Positions 1 through 64,000 of a stretch of 64,000 nt of DNA are shown here, one piece after another. The DNA comes from a virus. Both the position numbers and the translations under genes were made by a program. The stretch is from positions 1-64,000 of the IMG/VR virus record IMGVR_UViG_3300046002_004363; one strand, 5' to 3'. Position 1 is the first letter of the stretch; each line of letters begins with the position of its first letter. The notes under the pieces are model-generated. The model did not search any database and was not told the DNA's origin. It saw nothing but the letters and a program-made list of their open reading frames with translations.

Positions 1-94
1 TTTTAATATTTCTTTAAAGAGGGTGGAAGAAAAAAGAAAAGAAAAAGAATTTAACGTAGTAACTTCATTCGGAGATGGAATGTAGTATTACTGC

Positions 95-220
95 TAACGT
101 TCCGCATATTAACGATGTGGCGTATTTAAACACATACGAAAACAAATAAACAACAAACAAAAAGTGAGCCGACACATTTCGGATTAACCAAAGCCAAGCC
201 ATATCGGTAATATGCTGTTA
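95..220. repeat. attC-like hairpin element 1 (TAAC...GTTA)
   Basis: TAAC-gttcc-GCATATTAACGATGTGGC pairs with GCCATATCGGTAATATGC-t-GTTA (18-bp stem, one G:T, one mismatch) around an A-rich loop. Confidence 0.8.
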
Positions 221-247
221 TATGATGGCTTTATATTCACAAATATT

Positions 248-514
248 ATGAAAAATTTTAAACAATTCAGAAGAAGTCAAATTGCAGAAATGAGAGAAGT
301 AACAGAAGTAGATATTAATGTGTTTAATAATCACGGATTTATTCATATATCTGAATACCCATTTGGTTATAATGTATCTATTTCTGATGCAGATAAAAAC
401 AACGGAAGTCCTAAAATTGGAGATATGATTTCAAGAAACCCTAAAAACCACTTTGACCAGTGGTTAGTTTCTGAACAATATTTCAAAGATAACTTTGAGC
501 AGTTAGTTGAGTAA
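248..514 (+). CDS. small cassette-borne phage protein (paralogue of 2569-2847); in-frame upstream ATG at 212
   Basis: ORF; ACAAATATTATG start context shared with 2569; C-terminal 35 aa identical to the paralogue. Confidence 0.8.
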   Translation: MKNFKQFRRSQIAEMREVTEVDINVFNNHGFIHISEYPFGYNVSISDADKNNGSPKIGDMISRNPKNHFDQWLVSEQYFKDNFEQLVE

Positions 515-530
515 GCTATTATATAACGTT
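407..530 (+). repeat. 124-bp exact direct repeat, copy 1 (copy 2 at 2740-2863)
   Basis: AGTCCTAAAATTGG...AAGCTATTATATAACGTT identical at offset 2333. Confidence 0.95.
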
Positions 531-653
531 TGCCCGCTATAATTTCAGCGTGGTGTGACACACAATAGCCTTTCGATTAAGCAAAAAGAAAACAAGAGTA
601 CAAAATGAACATTGAATTAAACCTTATGCCACAATTGAATAAACACGCTGTTG
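524..653. repeat. attC-like hairpin element 2 (degenerate)
   Basis: TAACG...TTCAGCGTGG / CCACAATTGAA...GCTGTTG; same length and ends as the others but weaker pairing. Confidence 0.6.
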
Positions 654-826
654 TGCGATGGTGCTTTTAAATATAAATTATGTTAGGACAAAGAGTATAT
701 TTTGATTATGGCTTTGGCTCACGAGGATTTGGAACTTATGTTTATTGTGCAAAAACTCACAAAGTATTAATGTTTTTTAAAGATGAAAATTAAAACCCGA
801 TTGAAAGGTAAAATGCTATAAATATT

Positions 827-1066
827 ATGGAATTAAAAAGAGAATTATCGTTAGGAGAAAAAAGATTGAGAATTAATTTTGATGACATCTTGACCAATGA
901 ATGTAGTGAGCATTTAAAGTTGAAATATGAACTTGCAAAAGTCATAAATAGAATTGATGCTCTTGAACAAAATGGAAGTGAACACGGAAGATTGAAATCA
1001 TTAGCAATGACAGATATTGAAAATGCTTCAATGTGGATTACAAAAGCTTTTACTCACAAGATTTAA
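827..1066 (+). CDS. Acb2/Tad1-like helical hairpin protein, putative anti-defence nucleotide sponge
   Basis: 79 aa; C-terminal RLKSLAMTDIENASMWITKA resembles the Acb2-type R..A.A.T..E...M...A helix. Confidence 0.55.
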   Translation: MELKRELSLGEKRLRINFDDILTNECSEHLKLKYELAKVINRIDALEQNGSEHGRLKSLAMTDIENASMWITKAFTHKI

Positions 1067-1151
1067 TTTGTTCTTTACAAATGGTTGGCGAATTATCAAA
1101 AATTCCGACTACAAAACAATTATTAGAAATCTTCAAAAAAGAAAAACAACT

Positions 1152-1385
1152 ATGAAACAAACAGCAATAGAATTTTTAATTAAACAATTAGAAATTCTTA
1201 ATTTAATAAAAGAGGGAGATATAGAAAACGAACTTTTTAGGCAAATTGAATTAGAAGCCAAAGAAATGGAAAAACAACAGATTATAGATTCAAATATTTC
1301 GGGTATGGAATTTATAGCAGTAGACCCAAACAAATACAATGAAGATGCTGAAAAATATTACAACGAAACTTTTAAAAACAGATAA
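1152..1385 (+). CDS. hypothetical protein, MKQTA...AKEME..QII family (paralogue of 63696-63923)
   Basis: Likely start MKQTAIEFL inside track ORF 1017-1385; termini shared with the paralogue. Confidence 0.7.
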   Translation: MKQTAIEFLIKQLEILNLIKEGDIENELFRQIELEAKEMEKQQIIDSNISGMEFIAVDPNKYNEDAEKYYNETFKNR

Positions 1386-1428
1386 TATTTATGGAATAGT
1401 GGTAATGGAAAAATATTAAATTAAAAAA

Positions 1429-1686
1429 ATGTCGCATAAAAAAATGTCAGAAAGAAAATTAGAATTAGATAATATAGTGGATATTTTATCCAAAATAAAA
1501 GATGATGATTTTTATTTTAAAGCTTATGCAAAAGATATAATTAATAGTTATATTAAGCAAGAATTTAAAAAAGCTTATAGTATTGAGGAAGTAATAGATA
1601 TTTTAGAAATATTTCGTTATGATATTGAACAAGGAAATGATTCGGAAAATATTCAAGAATGGTTTAAAAAATACATAAAACAATAA
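1429..1686 (+). CDS. hypothetical protein (YS.EEV family)
   Basis: ORF with YSIEEV...WFKK motif like 62136-62348. Confidence 0.65.
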   Translation: MSHKKMSERKLELDNIVDILSKIKDDDFYFKAYAKDIINSYIKQEFKKAYSIEEVIDILEIFRYDIEQGNDSENIQEWFKKYIKQ

Positions 1687-1691
1687 TAAAA

Positions 1692-1907
1692 ATGAAAGTA
1701 GTACACAGTCCAAGAACAAAAAAAGCCGACAAAGTAGTTAATTTACTTTTTTATGGAGATTTTAATTGCACAACTGGTTTCGGTAATGTATCGAAACAAC
1801 TTATTAATAGTTGGAGCAAAAATAAAAATTTCAATATCACAATATTGGCAATTAATGATTCATCTGAAAAACCATATAATTACAAAAACAATTTACAAAT
1901 TTTTTAA
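1692..1907 (+). pseudogene. N-terminal fragment of a GT-B (GT4-like) glycosyltransferase
   Basis: LLFYGDFNCTTGFGNVSKQL resembles the GT4 N-terminal strand-loop-helix; ORF stops after 71 aa at the junction repeat. Confidence 0.5.
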
Positions 1908-1920
1908 AAACAAATAAGAT

Positions 1921-2070
1921 ATGATAAAAGATTTTATAAAATTTGTAATACTACATCGTTGGAATAAAATAAATGAATCACACGTTAGATTTGCTGAATT
2001 AAGTGAATTTAAACCAAATGGATTACATTTAAGACTTTATAATTATATTAAAAAAATTAATAACATTTAA
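1921..2070 (+). CDS. small hypothetical protein (49 aa, not in ORF track)
   Basis: ATG to TAA between two TTTAAAAACAAATAAGATATG junctions. Confidence 0.55.
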   Translation: MIKDFIKFVILHRWNKINESHVRFAELSEFKPNGLHLRLYNYIKKINNI

Positions 2071-2083
2071 AAACAAATAAGAT

Positions 2084-2353
2084 ATGACAGCAATAGATAT
2101 TGAAAAGTTAAACCAACTTATATCAAGAACTGATATTAGTGGTAACGATAAGGTAAGGTGGCTTACAGACTTCATAGATGGTAGAGAATTTCAGCAACAA
2201 CAAGACAAGAAAATGTATAGCGAGGAAGAAGTAGATGTATTAGTAGATATGTTACAAAAATGCAAAGAATATTTTTTACTGAAAACTGATTCTAAAAGCG
2301 AAGAAAGAGCAGATGCAATAGGAGAAGTACTTAAACAATTTAAAAACAAATAA
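2084..2353 (+). CDS. hypothetical protein (QQDK..YSEEEV family)
   Basis: ORF; motif shared with 62136-62348. Confidence 0.7.
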   Translation: MTAIDIEKLNQLISRTDISGNDKVRWLTDFIDGREFQQQQDKKMYSEEEVDVLVDMLQKCKEYFLLKTDSKSEERADAIGEVLKQFKNK

Positions 2354-2356
2354 TAT

Positions 2357-2524
2357 ATGAAAAATTTAACAGAAACACCAAATCCAGCTGATTTTATGAT
2401 GTTGGGAGAAAAAGCATTTGAAGAAAATGTACATGAAAAATTAAGAGAAACATTATCTCCAACAGAAAAACAAATGTGGATAAGTGGATATTTGTTTGCT
2501 TTAACTCAACAAAATAAAAGATAA
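2357..2524 (+). CDS. small hypothetical protein (55 aa, not in ORF track)
   Basis: MKNLTETPNP... ORF directly after a junction repeat. Confidence 0.55.
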   Translation: MKNLTETPNPADFMMLGEKAFEENVHEKLRETLSPTEKQMWISGYLFALTQQNKR

Positions 2525-2568
2525 AACAAAACAAAAACCCGATTGCAAGGGTAAATGCTACAAATATT

Positions 2569-2847
2569 ATGGAATATTTTAAAAATTACAGAAGAACACA
2601 AATTGCAGAAATGAGAGAAGTAACAGAAAGCGATATTACAGACTTTCATAATATAGGTGCTATTGTAATACCATCTGATTTAGGAGATTGGAAACACCCA
2701 ATAAAAGTTAGTATTTCTGATGTAGATTTATTAAACGATAGTCCTAAAATTGGAGATATGATTTCAAGAAACCCTAAAAACCACTTTGACCAGTGGTTAG
2801 TTTCTGAACAATATTTCAAAGATAACTTTGAGCAGTTAGTTGAGTAA
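2569..2847 (+). CDS. small phage protein, paralogue of 248-514
   Basis: YRRTQIAEMREVTE...SPKIGDMISRNPKNHFDQWLVSEQYFKDNFE. Confidence 0.8.
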   Translation: MEYFKNYRRTQIAEMREVTESDITDFHNIGAIVIPSDLGDWKHPIKVSISDVDLLNDSPKIGDMISRNPKNHFDQWLVSEQYFKDNFEQLVE

Positions 2848-2863
2848 GCTATTATATAACGTT
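2740..2863 (+). repeat. 124-bp exact direct repeat, copy 2
   Basis: identical to 407-530. Confidence 0.95.
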
Positions 2864-2981
2864 AAAGCATATATTTCAGTAGCGTAATAGTAAACAATAA
2901 AGTAAAAATTAAACAATTAATAACCAAACAAACACTAACACAACGAAAGCATATAGTAGCTATTGAATATATGCAGTGTTA
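2857..2981. repeat. attC-like hairpin element 3
   Basis: TAAC-gttaaa-GCATATATTTCAGTAGC / GCTATTGAATATATGC-agt-GTTA, with one bulged T and one G:T. Confidence 0.85.
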
Positions 2982-3326
2982 GTAGCTGTTTTGAAATTCA
3001 CAAAAATTATGAATACAGATGAATTTATTTTACCGATTATTTTAGTTTCTGTTTTGCTAATTATGATAGTAATAGGAAATATTAAAAAACGTGCTTTTTT
3101 GAAAGGATATAAAAAAGCGGAATTTGATATAACATCAAGTATGTTAGATAATGCAACTTGGTTTGGTAGCAGACCGATATTTTACAATACACTTTATTTA
3201 TTTGCTGTTAAATACAGAAAATACGGTTATGTTTCAGCAAGTAGATTTCGTGATGATATTTTAAGTATTGACCAAGAAAAAAGAGTTACAGATTTACCTA
3301 AAGAAGAACTTGAACGTATTGTTTAG
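2976..3326 (+). CDS. cassette-borne membrane-anchored hypothetical protein
   Basis: hydrophobic FILPIILVSVLLIMIVIG; flanked by GTTAGTAGCT (2978) and AGCTACTAAC (3334-3343). Confidence 0.7.
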   Translation: MLVAVLKFTKIMNTDEFILPIILVSVLLIMIVIGNIKKRAFLKGYKKAEFDITSSMLDNATWFGSRPIFYNTLYLFAVKYRKYGYVSASRFRDDILSIDQEKRVTDLPKEELERIV

Positions 3327-3389
3327 GAAACATAGCTACTAACTACTTGATTGACGAAACAACACCACACTGTAACTAACTGATTTACA

Positions 3390-3623
3390 ATGAAAAACTT
3401 TGAGATAGTAAGTATAAATTACAAAGTATATTGGAGGTTTAAAGAACACCATAATTATAAAGTAACGCTATGCAAGAAGATAATAAATTGTCAACGTGGA
3501 ATCATAATAAAACAATCAGTTAAGGGTGGTAGTATAGGTTATTACATATCAGGTAAATTCATAAAGAGGAAAGACTTAAATAAATACATAGAAGTTATAC
3601 CTAAAGAAATATATCCTTTTTAA
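3390..3623 (+). CDS. hypothetical basic protein
   Basis: ORF only. Confidence 0.6.
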   Translation: MKNFEIVSINYKVYWRFKEHHNYKVTLCKKIINCQRGIIIKQSVKGGSIGYYISGKFIKRKDLNKYIEVIPKEIYPF

Positions 3624-3645
3624 TTAGTTATTTGAATTTTATATC

Positions 3646-3653
3646 TATATTTG
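3646..3653 (+). promoter_or_regulatory. Bacteroidota-type -7 promoter element TATATTTG (also + strand at 7163, 7490, 35542, 49821, 57979, 58207)
   Basis: matches the TAnnTTTG consensus, intergenic, upstream of + strand genes. Confidence 0.75.
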
Positions 3654-3724
3654 CATATCTGAATATCCGACACGGAGAAGCCGAACACCGAACATAGTAG
3701 GCAATACATTTTAAATTATATTAT

Positions 3725-4021
3725 ATGGCTCAATTAATTGCAGTTAGCGTTGATCTAACAAAAATTGACAAAACAAGAATCGTTGAAGGTAAAAATGGAG
3801 GTAAGTACATAAACCTTACCATCTCTGTAAACGATGAGGAGGACCAATACGGAAACAATGTTTCTCTATGGCAGTCGCAAACAAAGGAAGAGCGTGAGGC
3901 TAAGGAGAATAGATTGTTCTTAGGTAATGGAAAGTCATTATGGAGTGATAGTGATAAAGGTGCAAAGACATCTAAGACTTCTAAGAAAGAAGAGGCTCAC
4001 AATGATTTACCTTTTAACTAA
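3725..4021 (+). CDS. putative single-stranded DNA-binding protein
   Basis: beta-rich small protein with DLPF tail, adjacent to ERF. Confidence 0.55.
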   Translation: MAQLIAVSVDLTKIDKTRIVEGKNGGKYINLTISVNDEEDQYGNNVSLWQSQTKEEREAKENRLFLGNGKSLWSDSDKGAKTSKTSKKEEAHNDLPFN

Positions 4022-4167: not shown

Positions 4168-4752
4168 ATGGCAACAGCAAAAAAAACACAAGAAACATTA
4201 GAAGAGAAATTAAATCTTATTCAAACAACTCTTAATGCACCAAAGAATTTATACAACTCATTTGGTAAGTATTCTTATAGAAACCTAGAAGGTATATTAG
4301 CAGGTGTAAAACCACTATTAAAAGATACAGGTTGTACTTTTGTCTTATCTGATGATATGGTGGAAGTAGGAGGTAGGATATACGTTCGTTCTTGCGCATC
4401 AATTAGTTATGGAGGGGAAACAATAGAGTCTTATGGTTGGGCTAGGGAAGAAGAAAGTAAGAAAGGAATGGATGCATCGCAGTTAACTGGATCTACATCA
4501 TCTTATGCTCGTAAATATGCTGCAAATGGTTTATTCGCTATTGACGATACGATTGATGCAGATGGATATAACACTCACGGAAAAGATGAAGTTACAAAAC
4601 CTAATAACTCCACAGCGCCAACCCCTAAGAAACCAACAATAAGTGACTTATCAAAGGTTAAGGATGCCTTAAAGAAAGATAGGGAGGCGACACTGAAGAT
4701 GCTTGAGAAGTACGACATAACGCCAGAACAAAGAAAGGAGCTTGGTATTTAA
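4168..4752 (+). CDS. erf: ERF-family ssDNA annealing protein
   Basis: KN.YNSFGKYSYR, AREEESKKGMDASQLTGSTSSYARKYA..GLFAIDD. Confidence 0.9.
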   Translation: MATAKKTQETLEEKLNLIQTTLNAPKNLYNSFGKYSYRNLEGILAGVKPLLKDTGCTFVLSDDMVEVGGRIYVRSCASISYGGETIESYGWAREEESKKGMDASQLTGSTSSYARKYAANGLFAIDDTIDADGYNTHGKDEVTKPNNSTAPTPKKPTISDLSKVKDALKKDREATLKMLEKYDITPEQRKELGI

Positions 4753-4776
4753 CCAGGCTCTTAAATAAAGTAATAT

Positions 4777-5496
4777 ATGAATAAGATAATCCTCATAGAC
4801 GCTGACAGTTTTGCATACATAGGTAATAACTGCGAAGAAGTAGACCAAGCATACGACAAAGTAGACCAGGCAATATCAAATATTATAGTGACATCTGGAG
4901 CAAGTCATTACACATTATTTGTAGAGAAACCATTCAACAATAACTTCAGGAAAAAAATTGTAAAGAGTTATAAAGTTGGTCGTGCAAACAAAGAACTGCC
5001 TAAGTTCTACAATGAAATTAAGGAATACTTAATTGGCAGTTGGAACGCTTATGGTCTCGGAGGTTATGAAAGCGATGATGTACTAATCTCCTACCACAAG
5101 AAGTGCAAAGAAGAGTATCCATTTACAGAGGTGGTTATTGCATCAATGGACAAGGACCTCAAGCAATATCCGATAGTAATGTTTGACACCTACTACCAGA
5201 GATTTGGTCAGGTGTATAATATCACAGAAGAGGAGGCTAATTATAATTTATGGGTTCAGGTGATTATGGGCGACAGCACTGATTCAATTAGTGGTATTAA
5301 GGGCAAAGGTATCAAGTATGCAGAAAGTGTCTTAAAAGGCTCTAAGAATCACTTTATGACCACTTGTCGAGCATATCGTGATAACTACGGAAGTAGATGG
5401 CAGAAGAACTTTATAAAGAATTACGTTCAGGTTAAGTTATTAGATAATCTGAATGTTAAGATTGACTTAACTGAGGTAGATTTTAATCAAGAATAA
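4777..5496 (+). CDS. 5'-3' exonuclease (T7 gp6/FEN-like)
   Basis: LIDADS, ESDD, SMDKDLKQ, GDSTDSISGIKGKG motifs. Confidence 0.85.
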   Translation: MNKIILIDADSFAYIGNNCEEVDQAYDKVDQAISNIIVTSGASHYTLFVEKPFNNNFRKKIVKSYKVGRANKELPKFYNEIKEYLIGSWNAYGLGGYESDDVLISYHKKCKEEYPFTEVVIASMDKDLKQYPIVMFDTYYQRFGQVYNITEEEANYNLWVQVIMGDSTDSISGIKGKGIKYAESVLKGSKNHFMTTCRAYRDNYGSRWQKNFIKNYVQVKLLDNLNVKIDLTEVDFNQE

Positions 5497-59386: not shown

Positions 59387-62300
59387 ATGAGAACAAAACA
59401 AGTTTTAGAATACATAGAAAACACACTAAATCAAACACCTAGACACAATTGTACAGCACTAGCTAAGGCTATAACCCAAGCTAGTAAAAAATTCAAGCAG
59501 GACCAATTCGATATGATGATGTTACTACTGGAAAATAAACCAATAGGAGGTCACACTCATAGCTATGGTTTCCACACGTCATACGGAAGAGATCTAATAG
59601 ACACAATGTCAAACTATTACTATAAATTTAATAACTAAAACCAAGCATATTATGAGTAATTATAAAACATTTTACGAAAATACAATTGTAGACAATATAG
59701 ATTTAGAGTCTTATGGTTTATCTAATGACGTATACCTATACGATAAAATTAAAACAACGTACAACATATTCAAACAAGAGTATGGTTTTATGATTGATAG
59801 AGTAGGCGAAGTAAACGCATTTAAAGAATGGTTAATGGGATTACCAAGTGTCTTAAGTGTTCCGTTTATGAATAGCGAAATATTGTCTTTAGCAAAAGAT
59901 AATGGATTCCTTAACGTGCAATGCATAACAAACCATATAGATGGTAGTAAAACAACTGAATATGTTTATGCAGAAGGCAGAATGTTAGAACGTATAGAAG
60001 ATAGATTTTTAAATAACTATTGGACTAACTTAGCCTTAGCTTTTTTTAACTTAAAAGATAACCTTTAAAATTATATAACTATGGAATTTACAAACGAATT
60101 TAAGAGTACAAGAAGTGGTTTTAATCACACGTCTAAACTATGGAGTAGCAAAGGAGAGTTATTAGCCGTAGCGGTCTGCAGATACTTAAATAGAACATGG
60201 GAAAGTTATGCATTTCAATCATCAATGAAGTCTGCGGTTTATCAGGCTATAGAAAATCAAGTGCAAAAAGAAAAACAACTGCAAAGGATAACAAGACTAA
60301 CCAAGAGTAAGAGACTAGAGATAGAAAATTACTCATCAATTATAAATGAATTAAAGGAACTATATAAGACATTGTAATGAATATAAAAGACCAATTCAAT
60401 AAAAGCAAAGGACTCCCTTTATATGAGATAGAAGTAACTAATCTAATTAGTAATAAAGATGACTTCATTATCTTCGATATAACGGCATATAAAAATTATT
60501 TCAAGGTAACACATCAGCCACTTACTGAAGAGCAAGAAAATAGCTGTAAAATAGCCTCATTCTTTATGCCTATAGATAATGAGGTTTCTTTAGAAGAACA
60601 CCTTAATGAGTTATACCAAAAATGTTGTGAAGAAATAACAAGTAGTGATTATTATATTTTAAATGATTAAAGATATGAGACCGAGAATTAATAGACGTGT
60701 GAATGTTCAGCAAGTGATTGAACACCTAGAGAACAAACGTAGAGTGTATTCAGAAGCTATTACAGACCTTATGAATGAAGAAGGTATATCTTATACCAAA
60801 GCAAAAGAATTGTTAAATAAAAGGCTATACGATAAGGTGGTCTTTAAATTTTAAGGTATGGTAATAGTAAACCAAATTGATAATGAATTTTGGCAAATGA
60901 GATTGTTTGAACCGAGTAATAATATTTGGTTTGAACTTCTCTGCCTTGATTTAGAATCATTAACGCTACAAGCGAGTGTAATATATAACGTAGATTTAAA
61001 CGAAGTCTTAAACTAATGAGAGTGAGAGACGCTAAATAATTCTAAGATATGACAGAAACTGCACAAATACACGGAAGTCAATTACATTTAGGAGAATTTA
61101 TCTATGTAATAAATAGATACGGAAGATTCCTTAGGAAGATTACTTGGCTAAATACATACTACTTTGAATGGAATTCAGGTTATAGTAGTATAAACGAATT
61201 AGAATTAAATACAGATCAAAAAAGTAAAGTTAAATTTTTATTAAAAGAAGAATAAATTATGGAAGAGTATAGTAATTGCTGTGGTGCAGGTAGACACCAC
61301 ATATATAACGAACTTTGTGCTGACTGTTTAGAGCATTGTGAGTTTGAAGAAGATGAAGACTTTGAATATGATGCGGACATCGAGGATTTACAAAGTTAGA
61401 TGTACATTGAATGTACGAAACCAAATAATTAAGGGTATTATAACAAGAGGTAAGGCATACGATGTTATATGGAGTAATGAGTACGGCTTTACCTTCCTTA
61501 ATGATAAGGGTAAATTGTCTTTAGGTAGATTTAAAAATTGTCATATAATAAATGGCGATTGGGAAGTAATTTAAGAAACAAAATATAAAAATATAAAATG
61601 GAAGTAAAGAAATTCACATTATTTGAGGTGGCTAAGATATTAAGAAATCAACACCTAAACAAACTAAACTACAAAGACTACAATAAATTTACTCAAGATG
61701 ATTTTGAAGGTGTTGAGTATGTAAGGGTTAATAACAAGACAAGACCAAAAGATTTAGTAGGTAAGAGTGGTAGGGTATCTAAGATGATCACCGCAATATC
61801 ACCTAAGGGTAAGGAGATTGTATTCGATGGTGTTACAGATATTTGCGAGGCCTTAGATATTAAGGCTAAGAACTACTGGAGAAAGATGGCAGAGAATCAA
61901 GGGTACACTATTGTAAGTGTAGAAGAAGTAGCTAAATTAATTTAAAGAAAAATAAGATGAAAAAAATACTTAAAAAATTAGAGAAATTAAATAAAATAAG
62001 TGGTGATACCAATATGATACAGATATTCTCAGATGGCAGTGGCTTTGTATTGTATGAAACAGAAGATATTAGATTTGAATTTCTGAGTATTAAGCAATTA
62101 AAGAAATACCTTAAAACAATTTAAAAAGAAATAAGATGGAAAATAAAGAAATACTTGAAGAAGTTGCTGAACAATTTGAATATACTAATGGTATATATGG
62201 ATTTAAACAAGGTGCTAAATGGCAACAAGAACAAGACAAGAATAAGTATAGTGAAGAAGAAGTAATTCAACTACTAATAAAATTCAATCAAGAAATTCAA

Positions 62301-62708
62301 GAAGTGGAAAATGTTAGAGGTTGGTTTGAAGAATTTAAAAAGAAATAAGATATGGAACACTTTAAATACAGATGGAAAATAGTTAATGTATACTACGAAA
62401 CTATAGATGATGATCCAGAGTTAAGACCAGATATAGTACTTGATGCCGTTTATTATAATGGTATAGACATATTGCCAATAATGAATGAAGTAGATTGTAT
62501 TGAGTTAAAAGAAGAAATGTATAATCAATTATTTTAAAATATGAATAAGGTAGAAATTATTGCAGAATTAGATAAACTAATGTATATTGCAGAACAATTA
62601 GAGAATACTTTTTTAGTTGGTAGACTTGAGGCAATAAAGCAATCACTTATAAAGGATTGGAATGAGAGTGATGCTTACTATAAAATTATAAGTAATCAAT
62701 TGAAATAA
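59387..62708 (+). CDS. run of small early hypothetical ORFs (59387-59638, 59652-60068, 60081-60377, 60377-60670, 60663-60854, 61049-61255, 61259-61399 Cys-rich, 61598-61945, 62136-62348, 62352-62537, 62541-62708)
   Basis: co-oriented, tightly packed ORFs; 61259 and 62541 read manually. Confidence 0.6.
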
Positions 62709-62821
62709 CGGTTCTCGGCTTGGCGAAGTTGCAGAATGTTGAAATTAAACACTAAATATTACAGATTATGACTAAACATTCAGAAAATACCAAAAGTAGC
62801 AATAGCACAAAACCTGTGTTA
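62706..62821. repeat. attC-like hairpin element 4 (array boundary)
   Basis: TAACGGTTCTC-GGCTTGGCGAAGTTGC / GCAATAGCACAAAACC-TGT-GTTA, imperfect. Confidence 0.65.
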
Positions 62822-63040
62822 CAATCAGTTTTTTTTGACTTTGATTATTGGAATAAATGCAATGCTTTATGGAATGTTTCTCCGCATCATTCTTTTGAAA
62901 ATTTAGTAGTCATTGAATATGTTGGAACAAGTAAAATGAGAATTTCTATTTGTGTTGAAAAAAATGAATTTGAATTAGGTTTAAATAGATTTTGGAGTGA
63001 GTTCAAACGTCAAAGTGAAAATAATGCGTTACGTAATTAA
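62768..63040 (+). CDS. cassette-borne hypothetical protein starting inside the hairpin
   Basis: flanked by GTTACAATCAGTTTT (62818) and AAAATTGATTGTAAC (63039-63053). Confidence 0.7.
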   Translation: MTKHSENTKSSNSTKPVLQSVFFDFDYWNKCNALWNVSPHHSFENLVVIEYVGTSKMRISICVEKNEFELGLNRFWSEFKRQSENNALRN

Positions 63041-63049
63041 AATTGATTG

Positions 63050-63175
63050 TAACGTATGTGGCTTTAAGCAGTTGCCAATAAAACTGCCTTAACTTTTGAT
63101 TTAAAACTAATGATTACAGATACAAAACAACCTTTAAATTTAGCCGAAAGTGGCAATTGCTTAAAGCCGCTGTTA
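63050..63175. repeat. attC-like hairpin element 5
   Basis: TAAC-gtat-GTGGCTTTAAGCAGTTGCCA / TGGCAATTGCTTAAAGCCGC-t-GTTA, 20-bp stem. Confidence 0.9.
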
Positions 63176-63562
63176 CAAGCAGTGTTTTTAGTTCCTTATG
63201 TTCCGTATTATTTACGAATATTTGAACCAATTTACAACGAAAAATATACACTTGTTGGAATTATTGAAAATGAACTTTATTGCAAAGAAACTGAAATAGA
63301 TGATTGTTTCTCTTTTGAAATAGACGAAAATACATTTCCAATATTAAGACCGTTGTCTGATTTTTACGATATAAATGCACCCGCATTTATTGATACAAAT
63401 TTTGATATTCCAACACAATTAGTTTTGGTTGATTTATGCTCTAAAAAACAACATTATTCAAGCGTAAGATATTCAGATATGCAAGAGTTTTTACGTGAAC
63501 ATATTGACATTTTCAATCTTATTGAACAAGATTTAGCCGTTTCAATCCACGATGTTGTGTAA
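63110..63562 (+). CDS. cassette-borne hypothetical protein starting inside the hairpin
   Basis: PILRPLSD, HIDIFNLIE; flanked by GTTACAAGCAGTGTT (63172) and AACATTGCTTATAAC (63561-63575). Confidence 0.75.
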   Translation: MITDTKQPLNLAESGNCLKPLLQAVFLVPYVPYYLRIFEPIYNEKYTLVGIIENELYCKETEIDDCFSFEIDENTFPILRPLSDFYDINAPAFIDTNFDIPTQLVLVDLCSKKQHYSSVRYSDMQEFLREHIDIFNLIEQDLAVSIHDVV

Positions 63563-63571
63563 CATTGCTTA

Positions 63572-63681
63572 TAACGTTCCCACGCTTGGCATCAGTTGCC
63601 TAACGGAATAATCAAATGAATTAATAAAAAACAATAATGTCAAACGAAACACTAATAGGCGATTGTGCCAAACGTGTGTTA
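63572..63681. repeat. attC-like hairpin element 6
   Basis: TAAC-gttcc-CACGCTTGGCATCAGTTGCCTA / TAGGCGATTGTGCCAAACGTG-t-GTTA with one bulged T. Confidence 0.85.
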
Positions 63682-63695
63682 AAAAACGTATTAAA

Positions 63696-63923
63696 ATGAA
63701 ACAACAAACAGCAGTAGAATGGTTAGAAGAACAATTATTTGGTTCATTAGGAATTGAATTAACAGAACATCAATCAAAAATGGCTAATGAAATATTCTTT
63801 AAACAAGCCAAAGAAATGTTTGAAAGTCAAATTATTAATGCACATACATCAGGGCAATTAGAAAATGATTTACTACCAAACGAAAAAGCACAACAATATT
63901 ATAAGCAAACTTTTAAAAAATAA
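63696..63923 (+). CDS. hypothetical protein, MKQ.TA...AKEM family
   Basis: paralogue of 1152-1385. Confidence 0.7.
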   Translation: MKQQTAVEWLEEQLFGSLGIELTEHQSKMANEIFFKQAKEMFESQIINAHTSGQLENDLLPNEKAQQYYKQTFKK

Positions 63924-64000
63924 AAATTATGATTTTTAAATTAATTTTTGAGGACAAACAAGAATATGCACAAGCTAAATCACAACTTCATTTATTACAA

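Follow-up and report, generated by a model that had tools for sequence, protein, structure and literature searches.

A probable integron cassette cluster without an integrase in an Elemovirus-like Flavobacterium phage

Results

The cassette array at the start of the contig

The stretch of DNA analysed here (the window, 64,000 nucleotides) comprises bases 1-64000 of a contig of 99,577 bases, and its carrier is an Elemovirus-like Flavobacterium phage. Positions 1-3343 consist of four cassettes of one kind (Table 1), and every sequence feature that a preliminary description had reported for their arms and bodies was recovered. Each unit combines an imperfect hairpin site of 110-130 nt, which starts with TAAC and ends with GTTA, with an opening arm, a body and a closing arm. 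Within the site, TAAC is followed by an unpaired linker of 4-5 nt, a stem of 17-20 bp, an A-rich loop, the return stem, about 1 nt and GTTA, and the body is bracketed by two mutually pairing arms of 12-15 nt. The conserved backbone starts at 3672, with genes for an Erf-like protein and a 5'-3' exonuclease at 4168-5496, just downstream of the array.

Table 1. Features of the array and of its counterpart in the second genome copy. R1 is the covariance model trained on phage sites; A0, A1 and A2 are among its training sequences.
Feature	Position	Strand	Remarks
DNA methyltransferase cassette, 3' end only (truncated at the contig start)	1-98	+	Closing arm 82-98
attC-type site A0, of cassette 1	95-220	+	R1 85.9 bits (training member)
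Cassette 1 body	217-527	+	Opening arm 217-231, gene 248-514, closing arm 513-527
attC-type site A1, of the 650 cassette	524-653	+	Right termini and length; R1 67.6 bits (training member)
"Interrupted" cassette 2	650-2860	+	Opening arm 650-663, ~1.9 kb of early genes, paralog 2569-2847, closing arm 2847-2860
Nested cargo, eight small early-style ORFs	680-2524	+	Starts at 680, 827, 1152, 1429, 1692, 1921, 2084 and 2357
48-nt direct repeat, copy 1, bounding the insert; leader or promoter-like	786-833	+	88% identical to 2528-2575 (family D15)
48-nt direct repeat, copy 2, in place of an opening arm before the paralog	2528-2575	+	Family D15
attC-type site A2, of cassette 3	2857-2981	+	R1 55.7 bits (training member)
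Cassette 3 body	2978-3343	+	Opening arm 2978-2989, gene 3009-3326, closing arm 3332-3343
Flank after the last cassette, including ORF 3390-3623	3344-3672	+	Side that faces the integrase and attI in bacterial arrays
Counterpart array, second genome copy	62706-64000, running on to contig 64736	+	R1 sites, backbone position
R1 sites of the second array	62706-62821, 63050-63175, 63572-63681, contig 64217-64346	+	Model R1

The truncated first cassette has a close relative in phage mymlan6-1: window positions 1-102 are 97% identical to its bases 2818-2919, the end of an N6_N4 methyltransferase gene, and the homology ends just past TAAC. The arms of cassette 1 pair over 15 consecutive positions, with G-T counted. 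Its 88-aa product belongs to a protein family of at least 329 members, in which no Pfam domain was found and whose fold gave no confident match. Homology to the relatives of cassette 1 in independent viral contigs extends from 183 or 216 to 528-531, with a site on both sides; the contigs L136 and L137 are among those in which it stops at 528-531. In cassette 3, 12 consecutive arm positions are paired (13 of 14 overall), and the product of 105 aa has a hydrophobic N-terminus; searches for a Pfam family and for a relative in viral contigs returned none. The last TAAC of the array is followed by TA and not by a hairpin. The same TA is found at the ends of the second array and of siphophage arrays, as well as on the integrase side of two arrays in Flavobacterium chromosomes.

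A comparison of arms from 30 distinct cassettes of this contig and seven phages gave, beyond the fixed tetranucleotides, a mean of 9.5 paired positions out of 10 for cognate arms and 5.3 for non-cognate ones. Only 0.5% of the non-cognate pairs reach 10/10, and 8.7% reach 8/10 or better. As cognate pairing is so far above the non-cognate level, chance is excluded for the bracketing arms as a class. The non-Watson-Crick positions of the arms comprise 36 G-T and 3 A-C pairs, which points to the + strand as the folding strand. This strand also folds better than the - strand in two sites of the second array and in A0 (-14.7 vs -9.7 kcal/mol), whose stem columns covary across 24 sites. In these 24 distinct sites, 86% of the stem cells are paired, compared with 67.5% in shuffled sequences (none of 500 shuffles reached 86%) and 31-48% when the partner strand is slid, and double changes, i.e. 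covariation, occur in 9 of the 10 stem pairs.

The termini are common to 40 distinct sites with lengths of 61-194 nt, the mean column identity being 59%. Site A1 is identical in the independent contig L135, and F. psychrophilum phage 2A matches part of it at 82% identity; the fold of A1 as DNA is no better than that of shuffles (z = -0.1). Site A2 has a long-range stem when folded as RNA and a weak DNA fold. The sites lie close together, with three of them in 95-2981, four in 62706-64346 and every one on the + strand. In the phage, the ORFs occupy the folding (+, coding) strand rather than on the opposite one, the latter being the orientation that is typical of integrons without defining them, and start codons and N-termini are located inside the sites.

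Two genome versions in one contig

The contig threads about 1.55 turns of a genome of ~61-64 kb via two diverged versions, and window positions 3672-34882 are collinear with contig 65010-99574 at 77-96% identity. The array at 62706-64736 occupies the same locus relative to the backbone in the second, diverged genome copy. Since the contig contains this collinear second copy, the latter array is the counterpart of the one at 1-3343 and not its continuation. The earlier proposal that the window ends are joined via a missing piece of a circularly permuted genome thus fails, as the window is simply the first 64 kb of a two-version contig. Two partner arms had also been predicted for the missing segment, one of which exists in the continuing contig. 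The closing arm of the cassette opened near 63680 is located at contig 64209-64220, 209 nt past the window end. For the closing arm 82-98, the 99.6-kb contig contains no partner, as its first base already falls within that cassette. Phage mymlan6-1, whose methyltransferase cassette is 97% identical, has the matching opening arm.

The interrupted cassette

No perfect partner was found for the arm at 650-663. It pairs with 2847-2860 at 12 of 14 positions, or at 8 of 10 beyond the tetranucleotides, which is weak alone. The 2847-2860 arm is an exact copy of 514-527, the closing arm of cassette 1, and there are further similarities: arm and leader 650-683 align with 217-251 (24 of 37 columns), the paralog is 50-88% identical to the cassette 1 gene in its 5' part, and the 124 nt at 2740-2863 are 100% identical to 407-530. 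The unit looks like a copy of cassette 1 into which ordinary early genes were inserted close to the start codon.

Model R1 found no site inside the nested cargo, and the gene junctions there bear a repeat typical of the early region (family D5). The product of ORF 827-1066 contains the Acb2/Tad1 hairpin domain PF24729 (36 bits vs a cut-off of 27, E = 7.9e-9) and is likely an Acb2/Tad1-like nucleotide sponge, which would make this an anti-defence gene; it is distantly related to the single gene at this locus in elemoA_2-5C. The ORFs that start at 1152 and 2084 are related to a gene within a cassette of the second array and to 62136-62348, respectively. Both copies of the 48-nt repeat are closed by a shared translation-start leader.

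The preliminary description had suggested that a second recombination process overwrote the cassette structure here, and the cassette-1-type ends, the early-gene body, the 48-nt repeat and the 124-nt identical tract support this. We infer the order of events in this third unit of the array: it would have acquired the early genes through recombination at the common 48-nt leader, either homologous or based on short homology, and gene conversion has probably given its last 124 nt the sequence of cassette 1.

A different explanation, which we regard as less likely, is that both the interrupted cassette and the tandem paralogs are artificial products of the assembly, in which the 124-nt identical tract was walked twice and the arrays of different strains were stitched together. 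The identity of the 407-530 and 2740-2863 tracts would invite such an error, the whole contig passes 1.55 times round the genome in two diverged versions, and related contigs often end within arrays. Moreover, L135, an independent contig, has site A1 and the 650 arm behind the paralog where the window has A2, and neither the junction 2863/2864 nor the stretch 1143-1903 was confirmed by any other contig. However, L135 bears the arm-less paralog behind ordinary genes, matching window positions 1903-2863 at 100%, and in it ORF 680 and the Acb2-like gene likewise come after the 650 arm. Because of this agreement, the lost cassette structure is genuine in one or more other genomes, whether or not the window shows a chimeric order. 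The layout of 1-3343 rests on a two-strain contig, and details such as the tandem paralogs are to be read with caution.

Related arrays in phages and bacteria

The same architecture is found in Flavobacterium siphophages and in Polaribacter phage P12002L. In seven siphophage arrays of 8-15 cassettes, a given site type keeps its downstream body while its upstream neighbour changes, so that one site type is preceded by five different cassettes and always followed by the same one. The unit of rearrangement is the cassette, i.e. the site plus its body, and homology breaks at TAAC. Cassettes have been exchanged between unrelated phage genera and with at least one host chromosome. A search for tyrosine recombinases (PF00589, E <= 1) gave no match in the 99.6-kb contig, and none was found with PF00589 in five array-bearing phages.

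A pattern scan of 596 Gb of genomes returned at least 120 matches, nearly all from Bacteroidota, each ~126 nt long and often several per locus. In one Flavobacterium chromosome (G001:C12, 263617-283114), R1 located at least 24 sites within 20 kb. This array ends 640 nt from a tyrosine recombinase, which passes the NF040815 model ("tyrosine recombinase/integron integrase") with 228 bits against a cut-off of 220. Two further loci, G004:C2 (61869-76590) and G002:C4, have the same layout, the array ending at a tyrosine recombinase. The bacterial recombinases scored 202 and 209 bits, each in two stretches, with the integron-integrase model TIGR02249, whose cut-off of 265 we take to imply an IntI-specific extra segment. 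As they fall below this cut-off, we call them IntI/Xer-like, and they are perhaps Xer-like rather than classical IntI. Since R1 finds Flavobacterium arrays that end at such a recombinase, the phage sites are Bacteroidota-type attC sites. Bacterial cassettes have bracketing arms of 15-18 bp, as in the phage. In the bacterial arrays examined, the ORFs are opposite to the folding strand and the sites are antisense to the genes; one bacterial cassette, which carries a relative of cassette 1 (L134), has the phage-type orientation.

Discussion

With this anatomy, the covariation of the stems, the kinship to integrase-linked bacterial arrays, the cassette-wise reshuffling between phages and the absent integrase, positions 1-3343 are most probably one end of a cluster of integron cassettes without an integrase (CALIN) in an Elemovirus-like Flavobacterium phage. 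Several observations count against this. Sites A1 and A2 fold poorly as DNA, and the coding strand of the ORFs coincides with the folding strand, unlike in the bacterial arrays that were inspected. Of the non-cognate pairs, 8.7% equal or surpass the pairing of the 650 arm. In addition, P12002L_attC1, the only closely similar site with experimental data, failed with IntI1, and the bacterial recombinases score below the TIGR02249 cut-off.

Alternatively, the sites could be REP or MITE-like palindromic elements of Bacteroidota, between which homologous recombination shuffles the genes with no site-specific integrase. The phage encodes its own Erf-type annealing protein and exonuclease just downstream, the array phages lack an integrase, and a similar site failed with IntI1. 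The sites are also very abundant and dispersed, being present in 76 of the 101 Flavobacterium species sampled, on both strands and far apart. We nevertheless consider this explanation improbable, as homologous exchange within sites would neither produce complementary arms that are cassette-specific and lie at a constant distance nor tie a site strictly to its downstream body, the sites are too diverse for efficient homologous exchange given their mean column identity, and in three or more genomes a tyrosine recombinase is found at the array end. Less probable still is that the hairpins and bracketing stems act in RNA, in early-mRNA processing or translation control, and that the cassette look is a by-product: the folding strand of the phage is its coding strand, the wobble pairs are of the G-U type and start codons and N-termini lie inside the phage sites, but the bacterial copies are antisense to genes and adjoin a tyrosine recombinase, the units of rearrangement between phages end at site termini, and the arms are left unexplained by an RNA role, which could be an added layer in phages.

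If the array is an integrase-less integron cassette cluster, its arms have a simple origin. The folded single strand, here the coding + strand, would be cut at one fixed point, after the second A of the 5' TAAC and before its C (G|TT on the complement), and each cassette would keep the outer part of the basal stem of its own site at its two ends. Integron recombination leaves just such a pattern. The recombinase would be a host enzyme, the IntI/Xer-like tyrosine recombinase located at the end of Flavobacterium arrays of the same sites; we infer that this host integrase acts on phage DNA.

More tentatively, Flavobacterium phages may possess a cassette pool of their own, which would be expressed from the early operon thanks to ORFs placed on the folding strand and often starting inside the recombination site, and would be shuffled by the host integron recombinase during infection. 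It could serve as a counter-defence "biobank" of methyltransferases and Acb2-like genes that uses a class of Bacteroidota attC sites largely missed by standard finders. If true, the phage biobank mirrors the defence cassettes of host integrons. The recognisable cargo, DNA methyltransferases and the Acb2/Tad1-like gene, would counter host defence. Only a few short predicted clusters of integron cassettes were previously reported in virulent phages, to which long, uniformly built arrays are added at this locus and in siphophage relatives. Furthermore, a widespread and little-described Flavobacterium site family is tied to a concrete, testable recombinase.

Comparison with known systems

Qi et al. 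(2023, Front Microbiol, PMC9892861) described the array of P12002L as a CALIN in a phage, with methyltransferases among its genes. Its attC1 site was described as TAAC, a 6-nt linker, stem, loop, stem, 2-3 nt and GTTA, and was the only one of six sites that was not integrated by the class 1 integrase IntI1 (PMC9892861). The present array resembles it in being carried by a Flavobacteriaceae phage, in the missing integrase, in the DNA methyltransferase cassettes, in the attC1 layout and in the arm-bracketed cassettes. However, P12002L has two predicted sites "with divergent directions" (PMC9892861), whereas the arrays here and in Flavobacterium siphophages are long, uniformly oriented and reshuffled cassette by cassette, with up to 15 cassettes. 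Most sites are ~126 nt here, compared with ~57 nt in P12002L.

In the promoter-stem-loop cassettes of T4-type phages, the repeated elements are promoters with stem-loops, and they work via homologous recombination. As here, repeated structured elements flank small early phage genes in hyperplastic regions; the T4-type cassettes are not known to have cassette-specific arms or a link to an integrase-associated site family.

In the classical model of sedentary chromosomal integrons, Vibrio arrays contain attC sites of ~120-130 nt. The likeness to these lies in long same-strand arrays, in the conservation of structure and not of sequence, in the AAC/GTT terminal triplets, in a unit made of one site and one body, in the folding of one strand and, for Flavobacterium, in a tyrosine recombinase at one end. 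The basal stem is longer here (12-18 bp vs 7 in the classical description), as is the asymmetric internal loop (4-5 nt vs ~1 nt), and the recombinases of the Flavobacterium arrays score below the threshold for classical IntI. Surveys with IntegronFinder report almost no integrons in Bacteroidetes (PMC9024848), and the standard model may therefore miss these sites. The Flavobacterium chromosomal arrays share the site family (as defined by the covariance model), the arms and the TA at the recombinase end with the phage array. They differ in that their ORFs lie opposite to the folding strand, while the phage ORFs are on the folding strand and many of them start inside a site.

Arms and candidate recombination sites

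All of the arms noted in the preliminary description are present, namely the leftmost closing arm, both arms of cassettes 1 and 3 and the opening arm of the interrupted cassette, as is the repeat of the cassette 1 closing arm (Table). The prediction that the full contig would supply the missing partner arms held at one end only. The cassette opened near 63680 has its partner arm 209 bases past the window end, whereas the closing arm at 82-98 has none anywhere in the contig because the contig start falls inside that cassette. Positions 1-102 match the last part of a DNA methyltransferase gene in siphophage mymlan6-1 at 97% identity; the homology ends right after TAAC, and that phage has the corresponding opening arm.

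Table. Features of the two array regions (window coordinates unless marked as contig)
Feature	Position	Length	Remarks
Leftmost closing arm	82-98
Inter-cassette elements A0, A1, A2	95-220, 524-653, 2857-2981	110-130 nt	TAAC start, GTTA end, imperfect hairpin inside
Cassette 1	217-527		arms at 217-231 and 513-527
Interrupted cassette	650-2860		opening arm at 650
Direct repeat, copy one	786-833	48 nt
Acb2-like ORF	827-1066
Paralog of the cassette 1 gene	2569-2847
Repeat of cassette 1 closing arm	2847-2860
Cassette 3	2978-3343
Second array	62706-64736 (contig)
Partner arm of the cassette opened near 63680	64209-64220 (contig)
Last cassette of second array	64293-64721 (contig)		L001 2293-2721
66-residue gene	64788-64988 (contig)		L001 2788-2988

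In a set of 30 different cassettes, an average of 9.5 of the 10 variable positions pair between cognate arms, compared with 5.3 between non-cognate arms. The non-Watson-Crick positions are 36 G-T and 3 A-C, and this excess of G-T identifies the plus strand as the folding strand. A0 and two second-array sites likewise have a lower folding energy on the plus strand. When 24 distinct long sites were aligned, their termini proved invariant and their stem covarying: 86% of cells are paired, against 67.5% after shuffling (none of 500 shuffles reached the observed value) and 31-48% with the partner shifted along, and double changes occur in 9 of the 10 stem pairs. A covariance model of the sites (R1), trained on phage sites only, found no further sites in 665-2568 or elsewhere in the window. 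A generic scan for TAAC...GTTA folds was too noisy for use, and an inverted-repeat finder at default settings did not pick out the arms.

Arm types are reused by different genes. In snusmum9-1 an unrelated gene (L006 2038-2353, minus strand) is bracketed by arms nearly identical to those of cassette 1; two bases differ in each arm, and the changes compensate each other.

Cargo genes

The product of the ORF at 827-1066 scores above threshold against the Acb2/Tad1 hairpin domain (PF24729, 36 bits) and may act as a sponge that counters cyclic-nucleotide defence signalling. The cassette 1 gene belongs to a family of at least 329 proteins, 83-106 residues long, to which no Pfam or PHROG family or known domain corresponds. 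Its protein model, a confident one (pLDDT 83), gave no significant structural match, the best PDB entry (E = 0.29) having only a weak small-barrel resemblance. The 105-residue product of cassette 3 has a hydrophobic N-terminus; it falls in no family, and viral contigs gave no relatives of it. A YopX-domain protein (PF09643, 54 bits) is the product of the last cassette in the second array, and its first 17 residues are encoded within the recombination site.

Two versions of one locus

The preliminary description had taken the genome to be circularly permuted, with a piece missing between 64000 and 1. A joining of the window ends in this form is ruled out, as the contig, 99,577 bases in total with the window as its first 64,000, goes on for another 35.6 kb, and no terminal repeat joining its ends was found in the whole 99.6 kb. 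From 3674 on, the backbone shares 89-91% identity with podophages of Flavobacterium in the genus Elemovirus, whose genomes are about 60 kb long. When the contig was compared with itself, window 3672-34882 and contig 65010-99574 proved collinear, with 77-96% identity. The contig therefore makes about 1.55 turns round a genome of some 61-64 kb in two diverged versions, and it probably threads two co-occurring strains. Features that rest on long-range order within it should be read with care. Both array regions (1-3343 and 62706-64736) lie directly upstream of a conserved gene, found at 3725 and, in its second copy, at contig 65063. Given two collinear diverged copies, these regions are the same locus in two genome versions, and the left-hand region does not continue the right-hand one round a circle.

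The moving unit

No cassette matches and no such array were found in the 68 Elemovirus isolates of the phage collection. In one of them, elemoA_2-5C, a single Acb2-like gene occupies the array locus (L003 8615-8896), and the ORF at 827-1066 is distantly related to it. Chains of 8-15 cassettes of the same kind are present in seven Flavobacterium siphophages (Muminvirus, Lillamyvirus and Hattifnattvirus), where many encode DNA methyltransferases. In independent viral contigs the homology to cassette 1 runs from 183 or 216 to 528-531, with a site on each side.

When cassettes and sites from nine arrays were clustered, each site type kept its downstream body while its upstream neighbour varied; one site type has five different cassettes before it and invariably the same one after it. 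Hence, the moving unit is a site plus the body after it, with the break at the 5' TAAC of the site, which is the boundary expected of integron recombination read on the folding ("bottom") strand. On this reading the arms are the outer basal-stem segments of each site, divided between the two ends of its cassette because the break at the 5' TAAC splits that stem.

A gene of 66 residues directly follows the last cassette in the second genome copy and in the siphophage arrays (for example, L004 1787-1984). Together with its preceding flank it is about 90% identical between that copy and all siphophage arrays. It seems that this gene moves along with the end of the array.

The interrupted cassette

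The preliminary description had proposed that a second recombination process overwrote the cassette structure, and this is supported by the presence of ordinary early genes and a 48-nt repeat inside a cassette-1-type unit. Positions 650-683, which hold the arm and leader, can be aligned with 217-251 of cassette 1. At the other end, the paralog is 50-88% identical to the cassette 1 gene in its 5' part and 100% identical over the last 124 nt, a tract that takes in the closing arm and runs three bases beyond it. The second copy of the direct repeat precedes the paralog and replaces its opening arm. Between the two copies lie eight small ORFs in ordinary early-region style, with no site detected by R1.

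No perfect partner of the 650 arm exists in the window or the contig. The simplest reading is that a cassette-1-type unit was opened beside its start codon through recombination at the shared leader, and that gene conversion would then have made its 3' end match cassette 1. The pairing of the 650 arm with 2847-2860 at 12 of 14 positions, weak on its own, is compatible with such an opened unit.

The tandem order in the window could instead be an assembly walk through the identical 124-nt tract, which we consider less likely than not. The contig probably threads two strains. Moreover, in L135, an independent 10.5-kb viral contig, a stretch 100% identical to window 1903-2863 runs straight into window 531-1143, with site A1, the 650 arm, ORF 680 and the Acb2-like gene, so that the paralog is joined there to A1 and not to A2, and the 2863/2864 junction was found in no other contig. 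However, the same match means that the arm-less paralog behind ordinary genes and the open-ended 650 cassette exist in another genome. In L135, too, the 650 arm has only weak partner candidates, with no site after them.

R1 did not report the copies of A1 in L135 (about 1806-1936) and in another locus, L143 (about 2790-2920), despite their identity to window 524-653 by alignment. A1 of the window scores 67.6 bits, and the omission is apparently an oddity of the tool or its filter.

Relation to chromosomal arrays and known integrons

A degenerate site pattern scanned over one genome per prokaryotic species matched at least 120 stretches, nearly all in Bacteroidota, each about 126 nt long and often several per locus, against a chance expectation of about 59 matches spread over all phyla. 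Site matches occurred in 76 of 101 sampled Flavobacterium species genomes. On a Flavobacterium sedimenticola scaffold R1 detected at least 24 sites in 20 kb, with the array end 640 nt from a tyrosine recombinase gene, and two further genomes share this layout. The array-adjacent recombinase passes the NCBIfam model "tyrosine recombinase/integron integrase" and falls under the classical integron-integrase threshold. The bacterial cassettes are bracketed by arms of 15-18 bp, and TA after the last TAAC is common to the recombinase end of bacterial arrays, window 3344 and other phage array ends.

The sites of about 126 nt are abundant in Flavobacterium chromosomes, where they form long arrays beside an IntI/Xer-like recombinase (scaffolds G001:C12 263617-283114 and G004:C2 61869-76590) and also occur as dispersed copies. 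The recombinase of G004:C2 (L133 1548-3326) has 592 residues, including an N-terminal extension of about 300 without a family match. Another array-adjacent Flavobacterium recombinase is encoded at L132 3754-4791.

Neither the contig nor five array-bearing phages contain a tyrosine recombinase. Combined with the recombinase-linked bacterial arrays, this leads us to infer that the phage arrays are integron cassette clusters dependent on a host enzyme. In the bacterial arrays examined, the ORFs and the folding hairpins are on different strands, as is usual in integrons, whereas in the phage arrays the ORFs lie on the folding strand and many begin inside a site. One bacterial array holds a site-flanked relative of the cassette 1 gene in the phage-type orientation, which hints that phage and host arrays exchange material.

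Almost no integrons have been reported from Bacteroidetes in IntegronFinder surveys (PMC9024848), and hence the standard integron model may miss this class of sites. Cassettes of the same architecture are present in Polaribacter phage P12002L, whose array is described in the literature as an integrase-free cluster of attC sites (PMC9892861); the attC1 reported there is laid out like the sites in the window. The array in the window belongs to a known kind, the phage-borne integron cassette clusters. Within that kind it is well developed, its genes are in reversed orientation, and it is clearly tied to the chromosomal arrays of the host.
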